Below are positions 2,670-17,553 of a stretch of 64,000 bases of DNA, piece after piece (positions within the stretch are counted from its first letter, which is position 1; the number at the start of each line of letters is the position of its first letter). Source of the DNA: Actinobacteria bacterium UBA7524. GTDB taxonomy: Bacteria > Actinomycetota > Coriobacteriia > Anaerosomatales > UBA912. Under the pieces are notes generated by a model. It searched no databases, was not told where the DNA came from, and saw only the letters and a program-made list of their open reading frames with translations. Both the position numbers and the translations under genes were made by a program. The stretch spans positions 1 to 64,000 of the forward strand of contig DLMY01000059.1 of assembly GCA_002478275.1 (NCBI GenBank), in the 5' to 3' direction.

Positions 2670-4337
2670 ATGACACAGAAGAAGAATCGCCTTCGCATCA
2701 TCCCTCTCGGAGGGCTTGATGAGATCGGCAAGAACATGACCGTGTTCGAGTGCGGCAACGACATGGTCGTCATCGACGCGGGCATCATGTTTCCCGATGA
2801 CGATCATCCGGGCGTCGACCTCGTACTCCCGGACTTCAGCTACGTCGTCAAACGCAAGGACAAGCTCCGTGGCATCGTGATCACCCACGGCCACGAGGAC
2901 CATACCGGAACACTGCCTTACCTGCTCAAGGAGCTGGGCGACAAGGTCCCGGTACTCGGCACGAAGCTCACCCTCGGCCTCATCCAGGGCAAGCTCGACG
3001 AGCACGGGATCAAGAAGGCGAAGCTGCGCGAGATCCGTGCCGGAGCCCACGTGAACCTCGGTTCGTTCGGTCTGGACTTCATGGCCATCAACCATTCGAT
3101 CCCTGACGGGGTCGCCGTGATGATCCGGACGCCGTTCGGCAACATCCTGCACACCGGCGACTTCAAGTTCGACCAGACGCCGGTCGACGGCAGGCTCACG
3201 GACTACCAGGAGCTTGCCAAGGCCGGCAAGCAAGGCATCCTGCTGCTGATGAGTGACTCCACGAACGCGGAATCGCCGGACATCACCCGCTCTGAGGCCT
3301 CGGTCGGCCCCGCGCTCCATTCGATCATGGCGAATGCGGAACAGCGGGTGATCGTCGCCTCCTTCTCCAGTCACCTCCACCGGCTCCAGCAGGTCTGCGA
3401 TGCTGCCGTGGCGTGCGATCGAAAGGTCGTGGTCACCGGCAGGTCGATGATCAACAACACCAAGATCGCACGCCGTCTCGGATACCTCGATATCGCCGAG
3501 GAGAACCTGATCGACGCATACGAACTCGGCGACCTGCCGCCCGAGCAGGTCTGCGTGCTCTCCACCGGCAGCCAGGGCGAGCCTCTCTCCGCGCTCGCGC
3601 GGATGGCGAACGGCGACCATCGCACGGTCCAGATCGAGCGCGGCGACACGGTCATCATCTCCGCATCGCCCGTGCCCGGGAACGAGAAGGCCGTCGGCCG
3701 CGTCATCAACCGGCTCATCAAAGCCGGCGCCCACGTCAAGCACAAAGGCAACTCCCCGGTACACGTCTCCGGTCATGCCGGCGCCGAGGAACTCAAGATG
3801 ATGCTGAACCTCATCGAGCCGAAGTACTTCGTCCCGATCCACGGTGAACCGCGCCATCTTCATGCGCACGCCGATCTCGCCCGACAGGTCGGGATCGCAT
3901 CCGAGGACATCTTCGTCATGGAGAACGGTGACTGCCTTGAGATCACTGAGACCTCAGCGCGTCTGACTGAGAAGGTCGAGTCCGGAGTCGTCTACGTCGA
4001 CGGTCTGTCCGTCGGAGACGTCGGCAAGATCATCCTTCGCGACAGGCAAGCGCTCGCCCGTGACGGCATCGCGACGATCGTCATCGCGATCGACGCGTCC
4101 ACCGGCAAGCCGGCGGGAGAGCCTGAGCTCGTCATGAGGGGCGTCACCGTCTCGGAGAGCGACCGCCTGCTCGAAGAAGCCCGCGCTCGTGTGGCCAAGA
4201 CCCTGGCGAAAACCGCAAAAGAGGGTGCGACAGACCACAACGTGATCTCGAACGCGGTCCGCGAGTCCCTGTCGCAATTCCTGTGGGAGCGGATCCGGCG
4301 CCGGCCGATGATCATCCCCGTCGTCATGGAGGTCTGA
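2670..4337 (+). CDS. rnj: Ribonuclease J
   Basis: PLGGLDEIGKNM, THGHEDHTG, HTGDFK, HVSGHA, PIHGE, C-terminal RRPMIIPV. Confidence 0.97.
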   Translation: MTQKKNRLRIIPLGGLDEIGKNMTVFECGNDMVVIDAGIMFPDDDHPGVDLVLPDFSYVVKRKDKLRGIVITHGHEDHTGTLPYLLKELGDKVPVLGTKLTLGLIQGKLDEHGIKKAKLREIRAGAHVNLGSFGLDFMAINHSIPDGVAVMIRTPFGNILHTGDFKFDQTPVDGRLTDYQELAKAGKQGILLLMSDSTNAESPDITRSEASVGPALHSIMANAEQRVIVASFSSHLHRLQQVCDAAVACDRKVVVTGRSMINNTKIARRLGYLDIAEENLIDAYELGDLPPEQVCVLSTGSQGEPLSALARMANGDHRTVQIERGDTVIISASPVPGNEKAVGRVINRLIKAGAHVKHKGNSPVHVSGHAGAEELKMMLNLIEPKYFVPIHGEPRHLHAHADLARQVGIASEDIFVMENGDCLEITETSARLTEKVESGVVYVDGLSVGDVGKIILRDRQALARDGIATIVIAIDASTGKPAGEPELVMRGVTVSESDRLLEEARARVAKTLAKTAKEGATDHNVISNAVRESLSQFLWERIRRRPMIIPVVMEV

Positions 4338-10168: not shown

Positions 10169-10800
10169 AGGCCCTGCTCAATCCGGCGAACAAGGTGACC
10201 TTGCTGAGGATGTTCTTCATTCCGGTGTTCGTTGTCGCCTTGCTGGCCAATCTGCCGGTCTGGGGACCGATCTGGGCGGCGCTCCTGTTCACGGCGCTCG
10301 CCGCGACAGACGCCGTCGACGGCTACCTGGCTCGCAGCCGCAACGAGGTGACCAACTTCGGCAAACTGATCGACCCTCTTGCCGACAAGTTGCTCGTCAC
10401 GGCAGCGCTCGTCGTTCTCGTCGAACTCGGCCAGATACCCGCCTGGATCGCGCTCGTCATCATCTCCCGCGAGTTCATCGTGACGGGTCTGCGCATGATC
10501 GCCATCGTCGAAGGCCGGATCATCTCGGCAGGCTCCTTCGGCAAAGCGAAGACGGTCTTGCAGATCATCGCCATCGTCGGCTTCATCATCAAAGACAGCC
10601 AGCCCGTAGCCATGCTCGGGGAGTGGATCTGGGCCGGTGGCGATCTCGTCTTGTACATGAACATCCTGTCCTGGGTGATCATGGCCGTCGCACTGGTCCT
10701 CACCATCTGGTCGATGGTCGACTACTTCTACCACGCACGCGACGTCATTCAGCTGCCGACGGTCCAGCGGGAGCAAGACCACCACCCCGAAGACGAATGA
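10165..10800 (+). CDS. pgsA: CDP-diacylglycerol--glycerol-3-phosphate 3-phosphatidyltransferase
   Basis: NPANKVTLLR, TDAVDGYLARSRNEVTNFGKLIDPLADK, SREFIVTGLR. Confidence 0.95.
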   Translation: MKALLNPANKVTLLRMFFIPVFVVALLANLPVWGPIWAALLFTALAATDAVDGYLARSRNEVTNFGKLIDPLADKLLVTAALVVLVELGQIPAWIALVIISREFIVTGLRMIAIVEGRIISAGSFGKAKTVLQIIAIVGFIIKDSQPVAMLGEWIWAGGDLVLYMNILSWVIMAVALVLTIWSMVDYFYHARDVIQLPTVQREQDHHPEDE

Positions 10801-12056
10801 TCATGTCCCCGGCAAGGAAGACCGCGGCGATACTCACCGTCGGTACCGAACTGACAGCCGGACTGTCGCTGGACACCAACACCCGGACCATCGCCGCGAA
10901 GCTCACGACCGCAGGTTTCGACGTCCGCGAGACGACCAGCGTCCCCGATGACGCTGCACTGGCCGCCTTCGCCATGACAAGACTCGTCGAGGCGCACTCC
11001 CTCGTCGTTGTCACAGGCGGCCTCGGCCCCACCCACGACGACGTCACCCTTCAGGCGGCCGCCGACGCCTTCTCTCTCACACTCACACCCGACCCTGCGC
11101 TTCTCAAGGCCCTGGAAGGCGTCGTGTCGCTTCACAGCCACCCACGCGCCCAGGAACAGGTCCTGCACCAAGCGCTAGTCCCCGAAGGCGGCACGGTGCT
11201 GATGCCCTCGACCGGCACCGCACCGGGCCTGGTGATCACGCTTTCAGAGCACCAGGTGCTCGTTCTCCTCCCCGGGCCACCTCATGAGATGGAGCCGATG
11301 CTCCACTCCTTCCTCGCCGAGGAGACCACGGCCGTCTCGGTCGCCACCATCCGATGCACGGGGATAGGGGAGTCCGACGCGCAGTTGAGAGCGCAAGATG
11401 CGCTTGGCGACGTGAGCGGCATCGACTTCACCGTACTGTCCTCGCCGGGCGATGTGCGGGTGATCCTGCGCGACACGGGTGCGGGACAAGCGGCGCTCGA
11501 TGACGCCGCGTCTCGCGTGACCCGTGACCTGGACGAATGGTGCTACTCGACGGACGGGTCTTCGCTCGCACAGGTGGTGGTGCGACTCGCCAGGCAGCAA
11601 GGGGTCACGCTCGCCACCGCCGAATCATGCACCGGAGGTCTGGTCTCCGCAGGGATCACCTCGGTACCCGGCGCGTCCGATGTGTTTCTCGGAGGACTCG
11701 TCACATATGCGGACGAGGCCAAGACGGATCTCCTCGGCGTGCCGGCCGGCACGCTCGAGGAGTATGGCGCCGTCAGCGCGGAGACCGCGGCTGAGATGGC
11801 CCTCGGCGCCTTAGGCCGCACGGGCGCCGACCTCGCCGTGGCGGTGACCGGCATAGCCGGTCCCGGCGGGGCGACGCCGGACAAGCCCGTGGGACTCGTC
11901 TGGTTCGGTATGGCTCGGCGGTCGGGCCTGAGTGCGGACGCGGTCACCCGGCACCACCAGCTTCGAGGCGATCGGGATACGATCAGGACACGCGCGACCA
12001 TCGTCGCGCTCGACCTGCTACGCAGAGCGCTACTGGAAGAGAGGACGAACGGATGA
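10797..12056 (+). CDS. cinA: CinA-family protein (MoCF-like domain plus NMN deamidase PncC domain)
   Basis: VGTEL...DTN, TGGLGPTHDDVT, LPGPPHEM, AESCTGG, GAVS, TGIAGPGG...KPVGLV; ATGA overlap with the pgsA stop. Confidence 0.93.
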   Translation: MIMSPARKTAAILTVGTELTAGLSLDTNTRTIAAKLTTAGFDVRETTSVPDDAALAAFAMTRLVEAHSLVVVTGGLGPTHDDVTLQAAADAFSLTLTPDPALLKALEGVVSLHSHPRAQEQVLHQALVPEGGTVLMPSTGTAPGLVITLSEHQVLVLLPGPPHEMEPMLHSFLAEETTAVSVATIRCTGIGESDAQLRAQDALGDVSGIDFTVLSSPGDVRVILRDTGAGQAALDDAASRVTRDLDEWCYSTDGSSLAQVVVRLARQQGVTLATAESCTGGLVSAGITSVPGASDVFLGGLVTYADEAKTDLLGVPAGTLEEYGAVSAETAAEMALGALGRTGADLAVAVTGIAGPGGATPDKPVGLVWFGMARRSGLSADAVTRHHQLRGDRDTIRTRATIVALDLLRRALLEERTNG

Positions 12057-12631
12057 GGGTCTTCATCGGGGTCGCTTTGCCCGAGCTGATGCGTGAGGCG
12101 CTTTCGGGCGCATGCGAGCTCATCCGGGAGGACGGCAGGGGTTGGGCAGACGACAAGTGGGTGCCGCGCGAGAACCTGCACATGACCCTCAAGTTCATGG
12201 GTGACCTGCCCGACGATGCCGGCCCCGACCTCGTGTCGCACCTGGCCGGGGCCCTGCGGACCAGCTCTCCATTGACACTGCCGATGAAAGACCCCGTGTG
12301 GCCGCTGGGTGGCCTCAAGAAGGCAACGATGCTGTGGAGCACGTTCTCGGACCCGGAAGGGGCATGCGAAGCGCTCGTTTCGACGATCGAGGACGTGGCT
12401 GCGGACTTCGGTGTCGTCCCGGACTCCCGCGTCTTCAACCCTCATGTGACGCTGGTGCGCACGCGCCACCCACGCGAGCTTCACTGCAAGCAGGAGGCTG
12501 TCGAGTTCGTGCAAGGTCTCCTCGGCGCAGAGCCGTCCTTGTCAGTGCCGGATGTTACGGTCTATTCGAGCAGACTTGGCAAGAGCAGACCGTACTACAA
12601 GGTGCTGGGCTCGGCGCGGCTTGGCGATTGA
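12053..12631 (+). CDS. thpR: RNA 2',3'-cyclic phosphodiesterase (2H phosphoesterase)
   Basis: MRVFIGV, two HxT motifs (NLHMTLKF, PHVTLVR); lies between cinA and recA. Confidence 0.92.
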   Translation: MRVFIGVALPELMREALSGACELIREDGRGWADDKWVPRENLHMTLKFMGDLPDDAGPDLVSHLAGALRTSSPLTLPMKDPVWPLGGLKKATMLWSTFSDPEGACEALVSTIEDVAADFGVVPDSRVFNPHVTLVRTRHPRELHCKQEAVEFVQGLLGAEPSLSVPDVTVYSSRLGKSRPYYKVLGSARLGD

Positions 12632-12707: not shown

Positions 12708-13757
12708 ATGGACGCGGACAAGACCAAGATCCTGGATGTCACCAAAGAGCAGATCGAGCGCAAGTTCGGCAAGGGTTCACTCATGAAGTTGGGGGAGCAC
12801 GCCGCCGTCACCAAGGTGGCAGCGATCCCTACCGGCTCTTTGGCGCTCGATGCCGCTCTGGGTATCGGGGGTGTCCCGAGAGGCCGGATCGTCGAGATCT
12901 ACGGGCCGGAGTCCAGCGGCAAGACCACATTGGCCTTGCAGGTACTCGCTGAAGCGCAGGCCGAAGGCGGGATCGCGGCGTTCATCGATGCCGAGCACGC
13001 TCTGGACCCGAAGTACGCCGCCGCACTGGGAGTGGACGTCGATGAGATCCTCATCTCCCAACCGGACACCGGCGAACAGGCCCTTGAGATCGCAGACATG
13101 CTCGTTCGCAGCGGTGCCATCGACGTGGTAGTCATCGACTCCGTCGCGGCCCTCGTGCCGCGTGCCGAGCTCGAGGGCGAGATGGGGGACGTCACGGTGG
13201 GTCTGCAGGCACGACTCATGAGCCAGGCGCTCCGCAAGCTTGCAGGATCACTGAACAAGTCCGATACGACCTGCATCTTCATAAACCAGCTACGCGAGAA
13301 GATCGGTGTGATGTTCGGCAGTCCCGAGACCACCTCCGGCGGACGCGCCCTCAAGTTCTACTCAACCGTGAGGATCGATGTGAGGCGGATCGATTCGATC
13401 AAGCAAGGTACCGAGATTGTCGGAAACCGGGTCCGCGCCAAGGTCGTCAAGAACAAGGTCGCCGCGCCCTTCCGTCAGGCCGAATTCGACCTCATGTACG
13501 GGCAGGGCATCAGCAAGGAAGGCAACCTTCTCGACCTGGGCGTGGAGGAGGGCGTGGTGGCCAAGTCAGGGGCCTGGTACACGTTCGGCGAGGAACGGCT
13601 CGGCCAGGGCAGGGAAGCAGCCAAGGACTACCTGCGTGAACACTCGGCTCTGCGCTCCACGATCGAATCACAGATACGGGAGCGCCTCGGCCTGCCCTCC
13701 ACCAATGGCAGTAGCGCGGCTGTTGCGGCCGAGCCCGCCGATGCGAAGGCAGAGTGA
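12708..13757 (+). CDS. recA: Recombinase RecA
   Basis: [45 protein letters not shown]. Confidence 0.99.
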
Positions 13758-13793: not shown

Positions 13794-14438
13794 GTGATGC
13801 TTCCTGCCGCCGGGTTTCTTGACATAGATGTCCCTGAACGTACATCCCGGCTGCGCATACTGCGAATCGACGAGTGCGGGTTTCACAGGACCACCTCCAA
13901 GGCGGTCGTGTCCGCGCTCGGTCTTCGCGACGGGGACTGCGTCGAGCTGACCGCCCTATCCGCAGGACTTGACGAGTCCGAGCCTGCGGCGGCGATGCAG
14001 CGCGCCCTCCTGTTGCTGGGTTACCGCGCCCGCTCGCGTGCCGAGATGGTACAGGCGCTGGAGCTCGACGGATACCCGCAAGAGGTCGTGGAAACCATCT
14101 GCGCGCGGCTCGAAGACACCGGGCTGATCGATGACGAGCGGTTCGTGGAGGAATTCGTCCACGCCAAGATCCGCGCGTCGTGGGGTTCACGTCGAATCAT
14201 ACGGGACCTCGAGGCAGCCGGGGTTCCCGAGGACATCCTCCAGCGGTGCACTGAGGCGCTCACCTCAGACGACACTGAATACGAGCGCGCGACCGAGCTC
14301 GCTGTGAAACGGGCGTCCCGGCAGCCGGACGTCGCCAAACTGGCGGCGTTCCTCGCCAGAAGGGGATTCCCGGCACCCGTCGCATGGCGGGCTGCACGCT
14401 CGGCAACAGATGCGATCACGTCTCGGTCGCAGGAGTGA
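13794..14438 (+). CDS. recX: Regulatory protein RecX
   Basis: ALLLLGYRARSRAEM, GLIDDERF, WGSRRIIRDL, FLARRGF; directly after recA. Confidence 0.88.
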   Translation: MMLPAAGFLDIDVPERTSRLRILRIDECGFHRTTSKAVVSALGLRDGDCVELTALSAGLDESEPAAAMQRALLLLGYRARSRAEMVQALELDGYPQEVVETICARLEDTGLIDDERFVEEFVHAKIRASWGSRRIIRDLEAAGVPEDILQRCTEALTSDDTEYERATELAVKRASRQPDVAKLAAFLARRGFPAPVAWRAARSATDAITSRSQE

Positions 14439-14512
14439 TGCCACTCCGGTAACGACCTCGATCACGGGCGCTTCGACCGCACCAAAAGTGCGTCGAGCGC
14501 TGCGCTTTTTCC

Positions 14513-14542
14513 TTGACGCTCCTAGCTGGCAGGACGTACTAT
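14513..14542 (+). promoter_or_regulatory. Sigma-A-type promoter upstream of the RNA candidate and rny
   Basis: TTGACG (14513-14518), 18-nt spacer, TACTAT (14537-14542). Confidence 0.7.
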
Positions 14543-14548
14543 TAACGC

Positions 14549-14699
14549 GGCATATGTGATTCTCCGTCACGGTGCGTCAGATGCCGCGCCGGCGGTAAGC
14601 GTTAAGAAACTCATCGATGGACAGCGGACCGGGACAACCAGTCCTGGCTGCAGCGTATAACGTATCCATGCACCGAGTGACGCGCAGCTCACATCTGCC
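14549..14699 (+). ncRNA. Candidate structured RNA, 6S/Ms1-like rod with a central bubble
   Basis: Nested helices: 14549-14559/14689-14699 (10 of 11 bp), 14565-14570/14677-14682, 14571-14577/14668-14674, 14580-14584/14662-14666, apical 14629-14635/14641-14647. 5' end matches the predicted TSS; lies upstream of rny. Confidence 0.6.
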
Positions 14700-14838
14700 A
14701 GGCGGGCGTTGCTCGGTTTTCTCGTTCTTCGAGTGCTGTCGCTTCTCGTGGAGCGTTTCTCCGGCCACCGGCCGCACCACTGTCAAGTTATCAATGTGCC
14801 TTATACTGCCCACGAGATAACCCGGAAGGAGGCGCCCG

Positions 14839-16371
14839 ATGAACCCTGTCGGAGCTGCACTCATCGCTCTGGTCATCGGCGCTGCCCTCGGCTTTGCACT
14901 CAACCGTTTCATCATCAAGGGCCGCACCGCACGTGCGGCCGATGATGCGGTAAGAGTCGTCAAAGACGCCGAGAAGCAGGCTGAGACACTCAAGAAGGAA
15001 GCCTTGATCGAGGCCAAGGACCAGATCTTCCGCATGAAGCAGGAGGCGGAAGACGAGGCCAAGGAGCGCCGCAAGGAGATCACTGCCCTGGAGAACCGCC
15101 TCGCACAGCGTGAGGAGAGCATCGACCGCCGCGCGGAGTCCCTGGACAAGCGCGAGCATCAGCTGTCCTCTCAGCAGGGACAGATTGCCAAGCGCGAGAA
15201 GGACCTCGAAGAGTTGATCGAAGAAGAGCGCAACCGCCTCCAGTCGCTTGCCGGCATGACGGCCGATGAAGCCAAGGCGCATCTGATGCGGACCGTCGAG
15301 GACGAGGTGAAGCACGATGCCGCCGCGTTCATCCGTGAGACGGAAGCACGGGCCCGCGAGGAAGCCGACAAGAAGGCCCGCAACATCGTCGGCATAGCGA
15401 TCCAGCGTGTCGCAGCCGATCACACAGCTGAGTCCACGGTCTCGGTCGTCCATATCCCGAGCGACGACATGAAGGGCCGCATCATCGGTCGCGAAGGCCG
15501 CAACATCCGGGCGTTCGAACAGCTCACAGGCATCAACCTCATCATCGATGACACCCCCGAGGCAGTAATCCTTTCGAGCTTCGACCCGGTCCGGCGTGAG
15601 ATCGGACGTATCACGCTGGAAACCCTGCTTGCGGACGGAAGGATCCATCCCGCCCGTATCGAGGAGATGTTCAACAAGGCGGAAGAACAGGTCGCCCAGC
15701 AGGTCCAGGAGGCCGGCGAGCAGGCTGCGTTCGACACCGGTGTCCACGGCTTACATGCCGAACTCGTCAGGACACTCGGTCGCCTGAAATTCCGCACCTC
15801 CTACGGGCAGAACGTCCTGAAGCACTCGACCGAGGTATCGCATCTCGCCGGGGTCATGGCTGCCGAGCTTGGCGTGGACGTCACCCTCGCCAAGAGAGCC
15901 GGTCTACTCCACGACCTCGGCAAAGCGATCGACCACGACATCGAAGGTCCGCACGCGATCATCGGCGCGGACCTGGCTCGCAGGATGAACGAGCCCAAGA
16001 CCATCCTGCACTGCATCGAAGCGCACCATGGTGACGTCGAGCCTGCCACCGTCGAGGCGGTCCTCGTACAGGCCGCCGACGCCATCTCCGCCGGCAGACC
16101 CGGTGCACGCCGCGAGACCCTTGAGAGCTACATCAAGCGTCTCGAGAAGCTCGAGGCGGTCGCCCAGAGCCAGCAGGGCGTCGAGAAGTGCTACGCCATG
16201 CAGGCCGGCCGGGAGATCCGCGTCATGGTCAAGCCCGAGCAGATCAACGACGCTGACGCGGTCGTGCTTGCCCGAGACATCGCCAAGCAGATCGAAGAAG
16301 AACTCGAATACCCAGGCCAGATCAAGGTCATGGTCATACGCGAGAGCAGAGCGGTGGACTACGCGAAGTAG
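14839..16371 (+). CDS. rny: Ribonuclease Y
   Basis: N-terminal TM helix, coiled coil, KH ([14 protein letters not shown]), HD (GLLHDLGK), [15 protein letters not shown]. Confidence 0.98.
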
Positions 16372-16409
16372 TCCCCCGCGTTATACTCTAGACGGCTACC
16401 AGCCATGCG

Positions 16410-16438
16410 GAACGGGTCGCCTCAAGAGCGGCCCGTTC
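16410..16438 (+). terminator. GC-rich hairpin after rny
   Basis: GAACGGGTCGC / GCGGCCCGTTC, 11-bp stem with one G-U pair; no U-tract. Confidence 0.45.
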
Positions 16439-16470
16439 GCCATGTACGCACGGACCCCGGAGCACCGAAG

Positions 16471-17553
16471 ATGTCAGGCGACAAGGAATCACTGATCGGC
16501 CTCGTATCCGCCGTTTCCGGTGAGGCCTACCTCAAGGTCGAGGAGACCTTCGGCAACGGTTACGTCAAGCTACGTATCTCCGAAGCCGAACGTCGCCAGG
16601 CCAAGCACGACATCCGCAGCGTCGAGGACATCGTCGTCGAGCTTCTCCGAAACGCTCGCGACGCCAAAGCCACCAGGATACTACTGGCCAGCAGCCGTGA
16701 AGGATCGGTCCGCACCCTGACCATGATCGACGACGGGGTAGGGATCCCGCCGCACATGCACGACCGCGTCTTCGAGCCGAGAGTCACCTCCAAGCTCGAA
16801 TCCATGGTCATGGACCGATGGGGTGTCCACGGTCGCGGGATGGCTCTCTACAGCGTCTCGGAGAACGTCCTCTCGGCTGCCGTGGCGTCCTCGGACACGC
16901 ACCGCGGCACCGCCGTGACCATCACAGCTGATTGCGAGACTCTGCCTGAGCGAACGGACCAGTCCACCTGGCCGCAGACGGAACGCGACGAGTCAGGTCT
17001 CGTCCGCGTCGCCCGCGGTCCCCGCAACATCGTTCGCCACGTTCTCGAGTTCGCCTGCGAGCACCCCGATCTTGAGGTCTACCTCGGTTCGCCGGTAGAG
17101 GTGCTGGCGACCCTGGCGGCCCTGTCGCGAGACACGATCGATACCGCCGACCTGTTGTTCGCCGATGACCTGGAGCGTCTGCCCGTCTGGCAGCGACCCG
17201 GTGCCGCAGCTGACGCTGCCGAGCTCGTCGAAGTGGCCTCCTCCATCGGTATCTCGATCTCCGAGCGGACGGCCCATCGCATCCTCGCCAACGACATGCC
17301 GCCGCTCGATACGGTTCTGCGCCTCGCACATGCCGAGGAGGACGAGCCCACTGCACCCGCGACGCCCGACATCTACCGGGACCGCAAAGGACTGAAGATC
17401 CATCACACCGACCTCACCGAGTTCAAGCGCGAGATGACCACTGCGTTCGACAAGCTCGCGGAACGCTACTACATCCATCTTCGGGGCGAACCCCGTGTCA
17501 AGATCGCCCGCAACGGCATCAGTGTGCGTTTCGACGTCGAAAAAGAGGACTGA
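16471..17553 (+). CDS. Uncharacterised GHKL-family ATPase (MutL/TopoVIB-like N-terminal domain, unknown C-terminus)
   Basis: VVELLRNARDA, IDDGVGIP, RVTSKL, GVHGRGMALYSV, GTAV; GGAG RBS before ATG 16471. Confidence 0.82.
   Translation: MSGDKESLIGLVSAVSGEAYLKVEETFGNGYVKLRISEAERRQAKHDIRSVEDIVVELLRNARDAKATRILLASSREGSVRTLTMIDDGVGIPPHMHDRVFEPRVTSKLESMVMDRWGVHGRGMALYSVSENVLSAAVASSDTHRGTAVTITADCETLPERTDQSTWPQTERDESGLVRVARGPRNIVRHVLEFACEHPDLEVYLGSPVEVLATLAALSRDTIDTADLLFADDLERLPVWQRPGAAADAAELVEVASSIGISISERTAHRILANDMPPLDTVLRLAHAEEDEPTAPATPDIYRDRKGLKIHHTDLTEFKREMTTAFDKLAERYYIHLRGEPRVKIARNGISVRFDVEKED

Follow-up and report, generated by a model that had tools for sequence, protein, structure and literature searches.

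What lies between recX and rny, the gene for RNase Y, in this genome? In many Gram-positive bacteria most mRNA decay is initiated by RNase Y, an enzyme whose dosage is critical. The window, by which we mean the whole 64,000-nucleotide stretch of DNA analysed here, carries the two genes on the same strand with a spacer of 400 nt between them. For this spacer the initial annotation had proposed a promoter-driven, rod-shaped RNA related to 6S or Ms1, or else a new leader controlling RNase Y. Our comparison with related genomes revealed in the spacer a folded RNA element that is conserved, measures about 175 nt and starts at a conserved promoter. The features around this element are the following (window coordinates):

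10623-12056, cinA (Pfam)
12053-12631, LigT/ThpR-like phosphoesterase gene (Pfam)
12708-13757, recA (Pfam)
13794..14438, + strand, recX, the gene 5' of the element (Pfam RecX_HTH1/2/3)
14487..14507, + strand, terminator-like hairpin and T-run 3' of recX (simple scan, this sequence)
14513..14542, + strand, conserved sigma-70-type promoter: TTGACG (14513-14518), 18-nt spacer, TACTAT (14537-14542)
14722..14838, + strand, spacer from the end of the element to rny, with a weak promoter-like site (14780-14807) and the Shine-Dalgarno sequence inside
14824-14832, + strand, Shine-Dalgarno sequence GGAAGGAGG of rny
14839..16371, + strand, rny (RNase Y), the gene that the leader would serve (Pfam RNase_Y_N, KH_1, HD)

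A gene for RNase J is located about 10 kb upstream of rny (window 2694-4328, + strand; TIGR00649, 591.8 bits), a position that fits the clustering of rnj...recA...rny described for Gram-positive bacteria (PMC3328962). The gene 3' of rny (16405-17553, + strand) encodes a 382-aa protein with HATPase_c as its sole domain match and thereby differs from the ymdB-type phosphoesterase gene that comes next after rny in B. subtilis (PMC3328962). An RNase E/G-family gene of the same genome is found on another contig (G000:C45:44235-45038).

A DNA search with the spacer (BLAST) gave matches in 7 of 40 relatives, limited to the promoter and the ~30-90 nt at the 5' end of the element, and these seven loci either had the order recA-recX-spacer (308-365 nt)-rny or lay at a contig edge. 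An alignment of eight sequences displayed the conserved promoter, a 5' block GGCAnATGTGATTCTCCGCC, the motif GGCGGT about 25 nt further on, and a 3' block of the form TCACATCTGCCGGACG-loop-CGTCCGG. A covariance model built from eight sequences (R1) had matches at E <= 0.01 in 74 of the order's 146 genomes, and nearly all of these matches were single and full-length. A further model (R3; 69 sequences, 26-pair structure) matched 58 of the 68 order genomes in a class-wide sample, including 29/30 in family f19 and 6/6 in family f3. In the other orders of the class, R1 matched none of 83 genomes, and R3 gave short, weak matches of 39-69 nt in seven of the 83, none of them near rny or recX. We rejected these seven as homologs, since they look like ordinary terminators. 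A phylum sample of 150 other genomes held no full-length copy and yielded three short, weak matches of 40-60 nt. The sequence pattern GGCANNTGTGATNCTCCG, with 15 specified bases, was discarded as too unspecific: the matches listed were chance ones from many phyla, with the exception of L079, from a Coriobacteriia metagenome-assembled genome, whose model match is that of L140 with the same coordinates and score.

Wherever the element is found, it stands in front of rny. Compared by eye with the rny coordinates, the R3 matches precede the gene by 70-330 nt in the same orientation, with the exception of a weak partial match in G126 that is on another contig than rny. When 70 model matches were fetched with their surroundings, 68 had rny downstream on the same strand; of the other two, L140 runs into a contig end and L204 is a false hit within a RelA-like frame. 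recX was upstream at 62 of the 70. In the one-contig genome G021, neither tblastn nor Pfam recognises the upstream frame as RecX, and the element still precedes rny. In G001, G002 and G004, which belong to the family of the window's own genome, recX was undetected between recA and rny and the gap measures about 500 nt. The corresponding loci (L235, L233 and L234) have an A/T-richer, diverged leader 5' end after a TACTAT box, which the covariance models missed. Diverged but recognisable 5' ends after a TACTAT or TAGGAT box were seen in G001, G002, G004 and G019, and order genomes that lack a match may hold such diverged forms; the copy in G003 is truncated by a contig end.

Comparative analysis predicts that the conserved fold is a three-way junction, in which P1 closes the element, P2 forms a side hairpin and P3 and P4 form a long arm. 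Its parts and the hairpin that follows are located in the window as follows:

14549..14559, + strand, 5' strand of P1, GGCATATGTGA, nearly invariant as GGCAnAUGUGAU in 69 sequences
14564..14595, + strand, P2 hairpin, conserved, with the base CCGTC/GGCGG and the inner stem GGTGCG/CGCGCC
14599..14683, + strand, P3-P4 arm: GCGTT/GACGC, ACTC/GAGT, ATGGA/TCCAT
14624-14651, + strand, P4 apical hairpin, within the P3-P4 arm
14653-14663, + strand, small hairpin/GCGTAT patch, within the P3-P4 arm
14689..14699, + strand, 3' strand of P1, TCACATCTGCC (pair counts, full-length MFEs)
14697..14725, + strand, terminator-like hairpin and tail, TTTCTCGT, weak in this sequence (-5.7 kcal/mol)
14672..14717, + strand, alternative 12-bp helix (14672-14683 x 14706-14717), in the MFE of the window's own sequence only

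P1 pairs the first nucleotides of the element with its 3' end over 11-12 bp, and a single mismatch in it is conserved (RNAalifold and covariance models). In the window GGCATATGTGA and TCACATCTGCC form 10 of 11 bp; this is the closing helix that the initial annotation had described, and it is conserved, forming with at least 8 pairs in the full-length MFEs of 64 of 69 relatives. The P2 segment folds as a single hairpin with at least 6 pairs in all 69 sequences, and its outer stem occurs in 27 different versions (e.g. CCGCC/GGCGG, CGACG/CGUCG, ACACC/GGUGU), with compensatory changes at all 5 modelled pairs. Compensatory changes were likewise present at all 5 modelled pairs of P4, whose core CCGGGAC-aacca-GTCCTGG (14629-14647) had already been recognised as an apical stem. 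P3 is the closing helix of its domain in the MFE of 57/69 relatives, with a mean of 12.1 closing pairs vs 4.9 in dinucleotide shuffles, and the irregular arm from P3 up to P4 is wholly different in sequence between groups. On the 3' side of P4 lies a conserved GYRUAU patch, of which GCGTAT at 14653-14658 is the window's own copy.

Conservation and covariation in relatives, which had been named as a check on the candidate, were both found. R1 gave one match per genome in 74 of 146 genomes of the order, and in alignment A3, which was fitted to the model and has 70 rows including a false hit, compensatory changes occur at 18 of the 26 pairs, a number that 0/500 shuffles reached. In A3, 94.5% of cells pair, compared with 86.9% in shuffles and 28-50% in slid controls; in an unfitted MAFFT alignment (A4) the values are 83.3%, 76.8% and 29-43%, respectively. 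Because the members of the order are related, shuffle controls overstate the significance of the pairing, and the slid controls together with the many distinct stems are therefore the better argument. The + strand is favoured by G-U pairs, which occur in P1, in P2 and in the hairpin. Folding energy, the other proposed check, was unremarkable against shuffles, with z = -1.64 for the + strand (10/200 shuffles fold as well) and z = -0.70 for the - strand, and we set the energy of the single sequence aside as unconvincing evidence. The element thus exceeds chance on conservation and covariation and not on energy.

The comparative fold replaces the rod with a central bubble that had been drawn for this sequence. 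Three inner helices of the rod (CGTCAC/GTGACG, GGTGCGT/ATGCACC and GATGC/GTATC) are complementary in the window without any non-pairs, yet in the 69 relatives their pairing does not exceed chance (33.4% vs 36.7% in shuffles and 34-40% in slid controls, a figure that rests on MAFFT, which aligns the variable middle poorly), and their 5' halves fall within P2, which is conserved in 69/69. For 14549-14699 the energies are -58.9 kcal/mol for the comparative fold, -61.8 for the MFE and -42.3 for the rod; the MFE uses part of the rod's inner helices, which stay energetically possible in the window's own sequence.

Several short motifs within the element were considered and rejected. UUCUCC after P1 does not qualify as an anti-Shine-Dalgarno sequence, as its letters are not conserved in other groups, and the idea that the GCRUAU patch mimics the 5' strand of P1 fits group 1 only, with groups 2 and 3 disagreeing. 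The 5' strand of P1 contains AUG-UGA, a start codon followed by a stop, 5 nt from the predicted start (14554-14559). Many members keep this site and others have CCGUGA, CAGUGA or AACGAU; a leaderless start-stop ORF was dropped, as it is not kept in all members.

A divergent 6S- or Ms1-like RNA binding RNA polymerase was the first reading given to this locus. The element does share with 6S RNA (RF00013) a size of ~180 nt, a high degree of structure and a closing helix that joins the 5' and 3' ends. In contrast to 6S RNA, it is fixed before rny and forms a three-way junction without a central bubble. The Rfam 15 models did not match anywhere in the window at their gathering scores, and for 14400-14880 even a cut-off of E <= 10 gave no match to any of the 4227 families, RF00013 included. 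A canonical 6S candidate is present elsewhere in the genome, outside the window: at G000:C24:16584-16765 on the - strand, RF00013 matches over its full length with 44.7 bits vs a gathering score of 46.4. The premises behind the first reading also gave way on comparison. Canonical 6S had been called scarce in this phylum, and 38/41 genomes of the order have an RF00013 match, 18 of them above the gathering score; 6S had been said to lie often upstream of rny, and in G006, G021 and G022 the two are found at 322/128 kb, 1164/860 kb and 889/673 kb (6S/rny), about 195-300 kb apart. Many relatives' 6S candidates likewise score just under the cut-off, and standard annotation may miss 6S in this order. 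Since the genome's own canonical 6S candidate lies elsewhere and 38/41 relatives have one, the 6S/Ms1 reading is unsupported, and with a fold that is not a rod we consider it hardly credible. An enrichment of rny mRNA of about 64-fold on RNA polymerase, which RIP-seq data from B. subtilis in PMC11077062 indicate, is an echo of that reading and not a test of it.

The near-consensus sigma-A promoter reported earlier is present, with 9/12 consensus matches for TTGACG-N18-TACTAT, and it is one of 2 promoter-like sites found in 14000-15200 vs 0.2 expected from shuffles. We scanned the relatives for TTGAC[GCAT]-N16-18-TAnnAT/TAnnnT, which is a crude match to the sigma-70 consensus and would miss promoters of other sigma factors. 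At 64/68 related loci a promoter-like site ends 5-7 nt 5' of the model match, and the consensus across relatives reads cTtgacgct...tac.aT. Transcription would accordingly start at about 14549 in the window, 7 nt 3' of the -10 box. The second site of the window, CTGTCA-N16-TATACT at 14780-14807, also has 9/12 matches and is weak; its -10 box (14802) had been noticed before and taken as a sign that rny has its own promoter and that the element is an independent transcript. The box is indeed there, but the conclusion finds no counterpart in the relatives: in a sigma-70 consensus scan of 66 relatives' loci, from which two loci without a placed rny start codon (the window's own among them) were omitted, 0/66 had a promoter-like site between hairpin and rny. 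This spacer measures 66-172 nt in the relatives (median 114), and in the nearest relative, G003, it lacks the TATACT box by eye. By such sigma-70-type scans, the promoter before the element is the only conserved promoter of the recX-rny spacer. A very strong Shine-Dalgarno sequence, AAGGGAGGG or GGAAGGAGG, precedes rny at nearly all related loci.

Free-standing small RNAs, too, are built from a promoter and a terminator-like hairpin, and here a GC hairpin with T residues in its tail lies 150 nt after the promoter. The element might accordingly be an independent, trans-acting RNA of ~175 nt with its own promoter, ending at the hairpin, while rny is expressed separately; the single copy per genome and the promoter-like site nearer rny in the window would agree with this. 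Convincing matches to the element are, however, never found away from rny, the 66 scanned relatives have no promoter-like site between hairpin and gene, and the U-tail is weak in many members. Moreover, no unpaired stretch is conserved across the order, UUCUC in J1/2 of one group being CGAG or CA elsewhere. Taken together, a purely trans-acting RNA appears rather unlikely to us. A leader whose transcription ends early can double as a small RNA, so that this reading need not conflict with the one that we prefer, in which the element is part of the rny messenger.

Position, strand and sole conserved promoter fit the reading of the element as a new leader before the RNase Y gene, which had been the second proposal for this locus. 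The element directly precedes rny in the same orientation, even at loci without an adjacent recX, and its promoter is the only conserved one in the spacer, with 0/66 relatives having a promoter between element and gene and the window having one weak 9/12 site. For these reasons we favour, with reasonable though not full confidence, a cis-acting structured 5' leader or attenuator of the rny messenger that sets RNase Y synthesis. Several observations speak against it: the weak promoter-like site in the window's own spacer (14780-14807), the possibility that rny is read through from recA-recX, the anatomy shared with small RNAs, and the 3-bp overlap of P1 and hairpin, which is short for a switch. 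In addition, the U-tail is poor in many members (<=3 T of 8 in 28/69), and nothing in the sequence points to RNase Y as the effector.

The hairpin abutting P1 bears on how such a leader might work. In relatives it has the form GCCGGRCG-loop-CGUCCGGY, with 8 bp and a median energy of -14.0 kcal/mol, and compensatory and G-U changes are present in it as well. Judged by its sequence, the hairpin is terminator-like with an often poor U-run: the 8-nt tail contains at least 4 T in 41/69 sequences and at least 5 in 17/69, whereas 7 of the 28 sequences with a poor tail have <=2 T. Typical tails are UUUUC, UUCGUCGU and UUGACGUA. The first three letters of the hairpin, GCC, are the last three of P1, an overlap found in 67/69 sequences, and in the full-length MFEs of 63/69 P1 retains this GCC and leaves a 5-bp hairpin. 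The window's own sequence is an outlier, its local hairpin being degenerate at -5.7 kcal/mol. Its alternative 12-bp helix uses the 3' strand of P3 and ends at the T-run; as predicted for this one sequence, the arrangement resembles a switch between P3 and a terminator.

A structured domain from +1 whose closing helix shares letters with a GC hairpin and U-tail is reminiscent of attenuators and of riboswitch expression platforms. Could the three-way junction bind a small molecule that chooses between P1 and the full terminator? That P1 begins at the predicted transcript start, that the terminator-like hairpin overlaps it by 3 bp, and that the alternative helix of the window links the P3 3' strand to the T-run would suit a riboswitch. 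The known platforms differ from the element in that its overlap is limited to 3 bp, its junction has no conserved nucleotides, no anti-terminator is evident, and the U-tail is weak in many members. The invariant or near-invariant columns of A4 fall in the stems of P1 and the hairpin and not in junctions or loops, the junction letters differ between groups, and the single copy per genome accompanies a ribonuclease gene rather than one for metabolism or transport. A small-molecule sensor is for these reasons quite improbable.

Returning to the leader reading, and starting from the observed conservation, fold, position and promoter pattern, we infer the transcript ends, the read-through, the effector and the direction of control as follows. 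Transcription would start at the conserved promoter (~14549), and the first ~150 nt would fold with P1 closing from the very 5' end, P2 as the side hairpin and P3-P4 as the arm, adjoined by the GC hairpin with its U-containing tail and shared GCC. With P1 fully formed, only the 5-bp hairpin would be left and the polymerase would read through the ~115-nt spacer into rny; if P1 failed, the 8-bp hairpin could form and a stop of transcription would become more likely. The paired 5' end may also act as a stabiliser that protects the messenger against decay dependent on the 5' end. The leader is probably a target of RNase Y, which would either bind it or cut a few A/U-rich unpaired patches, and cuts in such patches (e.g. 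GYRUAU 3' of P4) would remove the stabiliser. RNase Y would thereby hold its own level steady. The more specific version, an RNase Y-sensing attenuator in which free RNase Y, by binding or cutting the junction, decides whether P1 is held or fails, is a tentative proposal that we think more doubtful than probable. An abundant short product of the attenuator might also act alone, e.g. on RNA polymerase, on which rny mRNA is enriched in the B. subtilis RIP-seq data.

RNase Y is, by analogy, the most plausible input of the leader, and the rny 5' UTR of B. subtilis is a precedent. In B. subtilis, rny has a 164-nt 5' UTR that is cut by RNase Y, resulting in autoregulation, and that is thereby opened to RNase J1 (PMC10303841). 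RNase J, for which such cuts serve as entry sites, is encoded in the window as well. Both organisms have a long leader (164 nt there vs ~290 nt here), a sigma-A-type promoter, a very strong Shine-Dalgarno sequence before rny, a gene for RNase J and the neighbourhood recA...rny. The leader of B. subtilis differs in being A/U-rich, loosely structured and cut at many sites, and neither a conserved fold of several helices nor a terminator-like hairpin inside the leader is mentioned in PMC10303841. There is no likeness between the two leaders in sequence or at the level of Rfam, and control by RNase Y is proposed here by analogy.

A second precedent is RNase E of E. coli, which binds a stem-loop in its own rne leader (cited in PMC10303841). 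Like the element described here, the rne 5' UTR is long, conserved and structured and belongs to the messenger of the endoribonuclease that chiefly initiates decay; the rne leader senses the level of its enzyme. The two differ in enzyme family and in fold, and the Rfam scan of our element gave no match. The rne 5' UTR does have an Rfam family, and to our knowledge it has no terminator-like hairpin. By analogy with these systems, the kind of element would already be known, namely a structured leader of autoregulatory type in front of a major ribonuclease gene, and this particular element would be new.

Leaders of similar architecture may exist beyond the order. rny was found in 150/151 sampled genomes of the class, and we compared the regions upstream of it in 20 genomes of other families, 13 of which have recX upstream of rny. 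At least one promoter-like site was present in 16/20, mostly ~100-230 nt before rny. In single-sequence MFEs, a domain that begins at the predicted start is often closed by a helix, and a GC hairpin comes directly after it. A closing helix with a following GC hairpin was noted at L239-L245, L250, L251 and L254-L256; in families f27 and f32 the hairpin has a clear U5 run, and L242 has GCUUGAGUGA.../UCGCUCAUGC, then CCGG-loop-CCGGG-AUUUUU. As these folds are single-sequence predictions from predicted starts, the likeness seen is one of architecture. The rny leaders of the other orders may represent one class-wide family that has diverged beyond the reach of our models.

Overall, our analysis revealed a defined, covarying RNA structure before rny in the majority of the genomes sampled from one order of the Coriobacteriia, and with it a tempting but mistaken annotation as 6S is corrected. 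In the full-text literature searched, which covered rny leaders, riboswitches and structured RNAs, the synteny of 6S and rny, and small RNAs, start sites and RNase Y of Coriobacteriia, we came across no account of such a leader in this class, and as no Rfam family matches, the element is a candidate new RNA family for annotation. We know of only one bacterium, B. subtilis, for which the setting of RNase Y levels is known even in outline, and its leader has no defined fold. The element is a concrete object for testing RNase Y homeostasis, in which, by analogy, it plausibly has a role as a leader. Should it be an RNase Y-sensing attenuator, RNase Y would gain its first described autoregulatory RNA with a conserved structure, a counterpart of the rne 5' UTR, and analogous leaders might then be at work across the class Coriobacteriia, including genera of the human gut.
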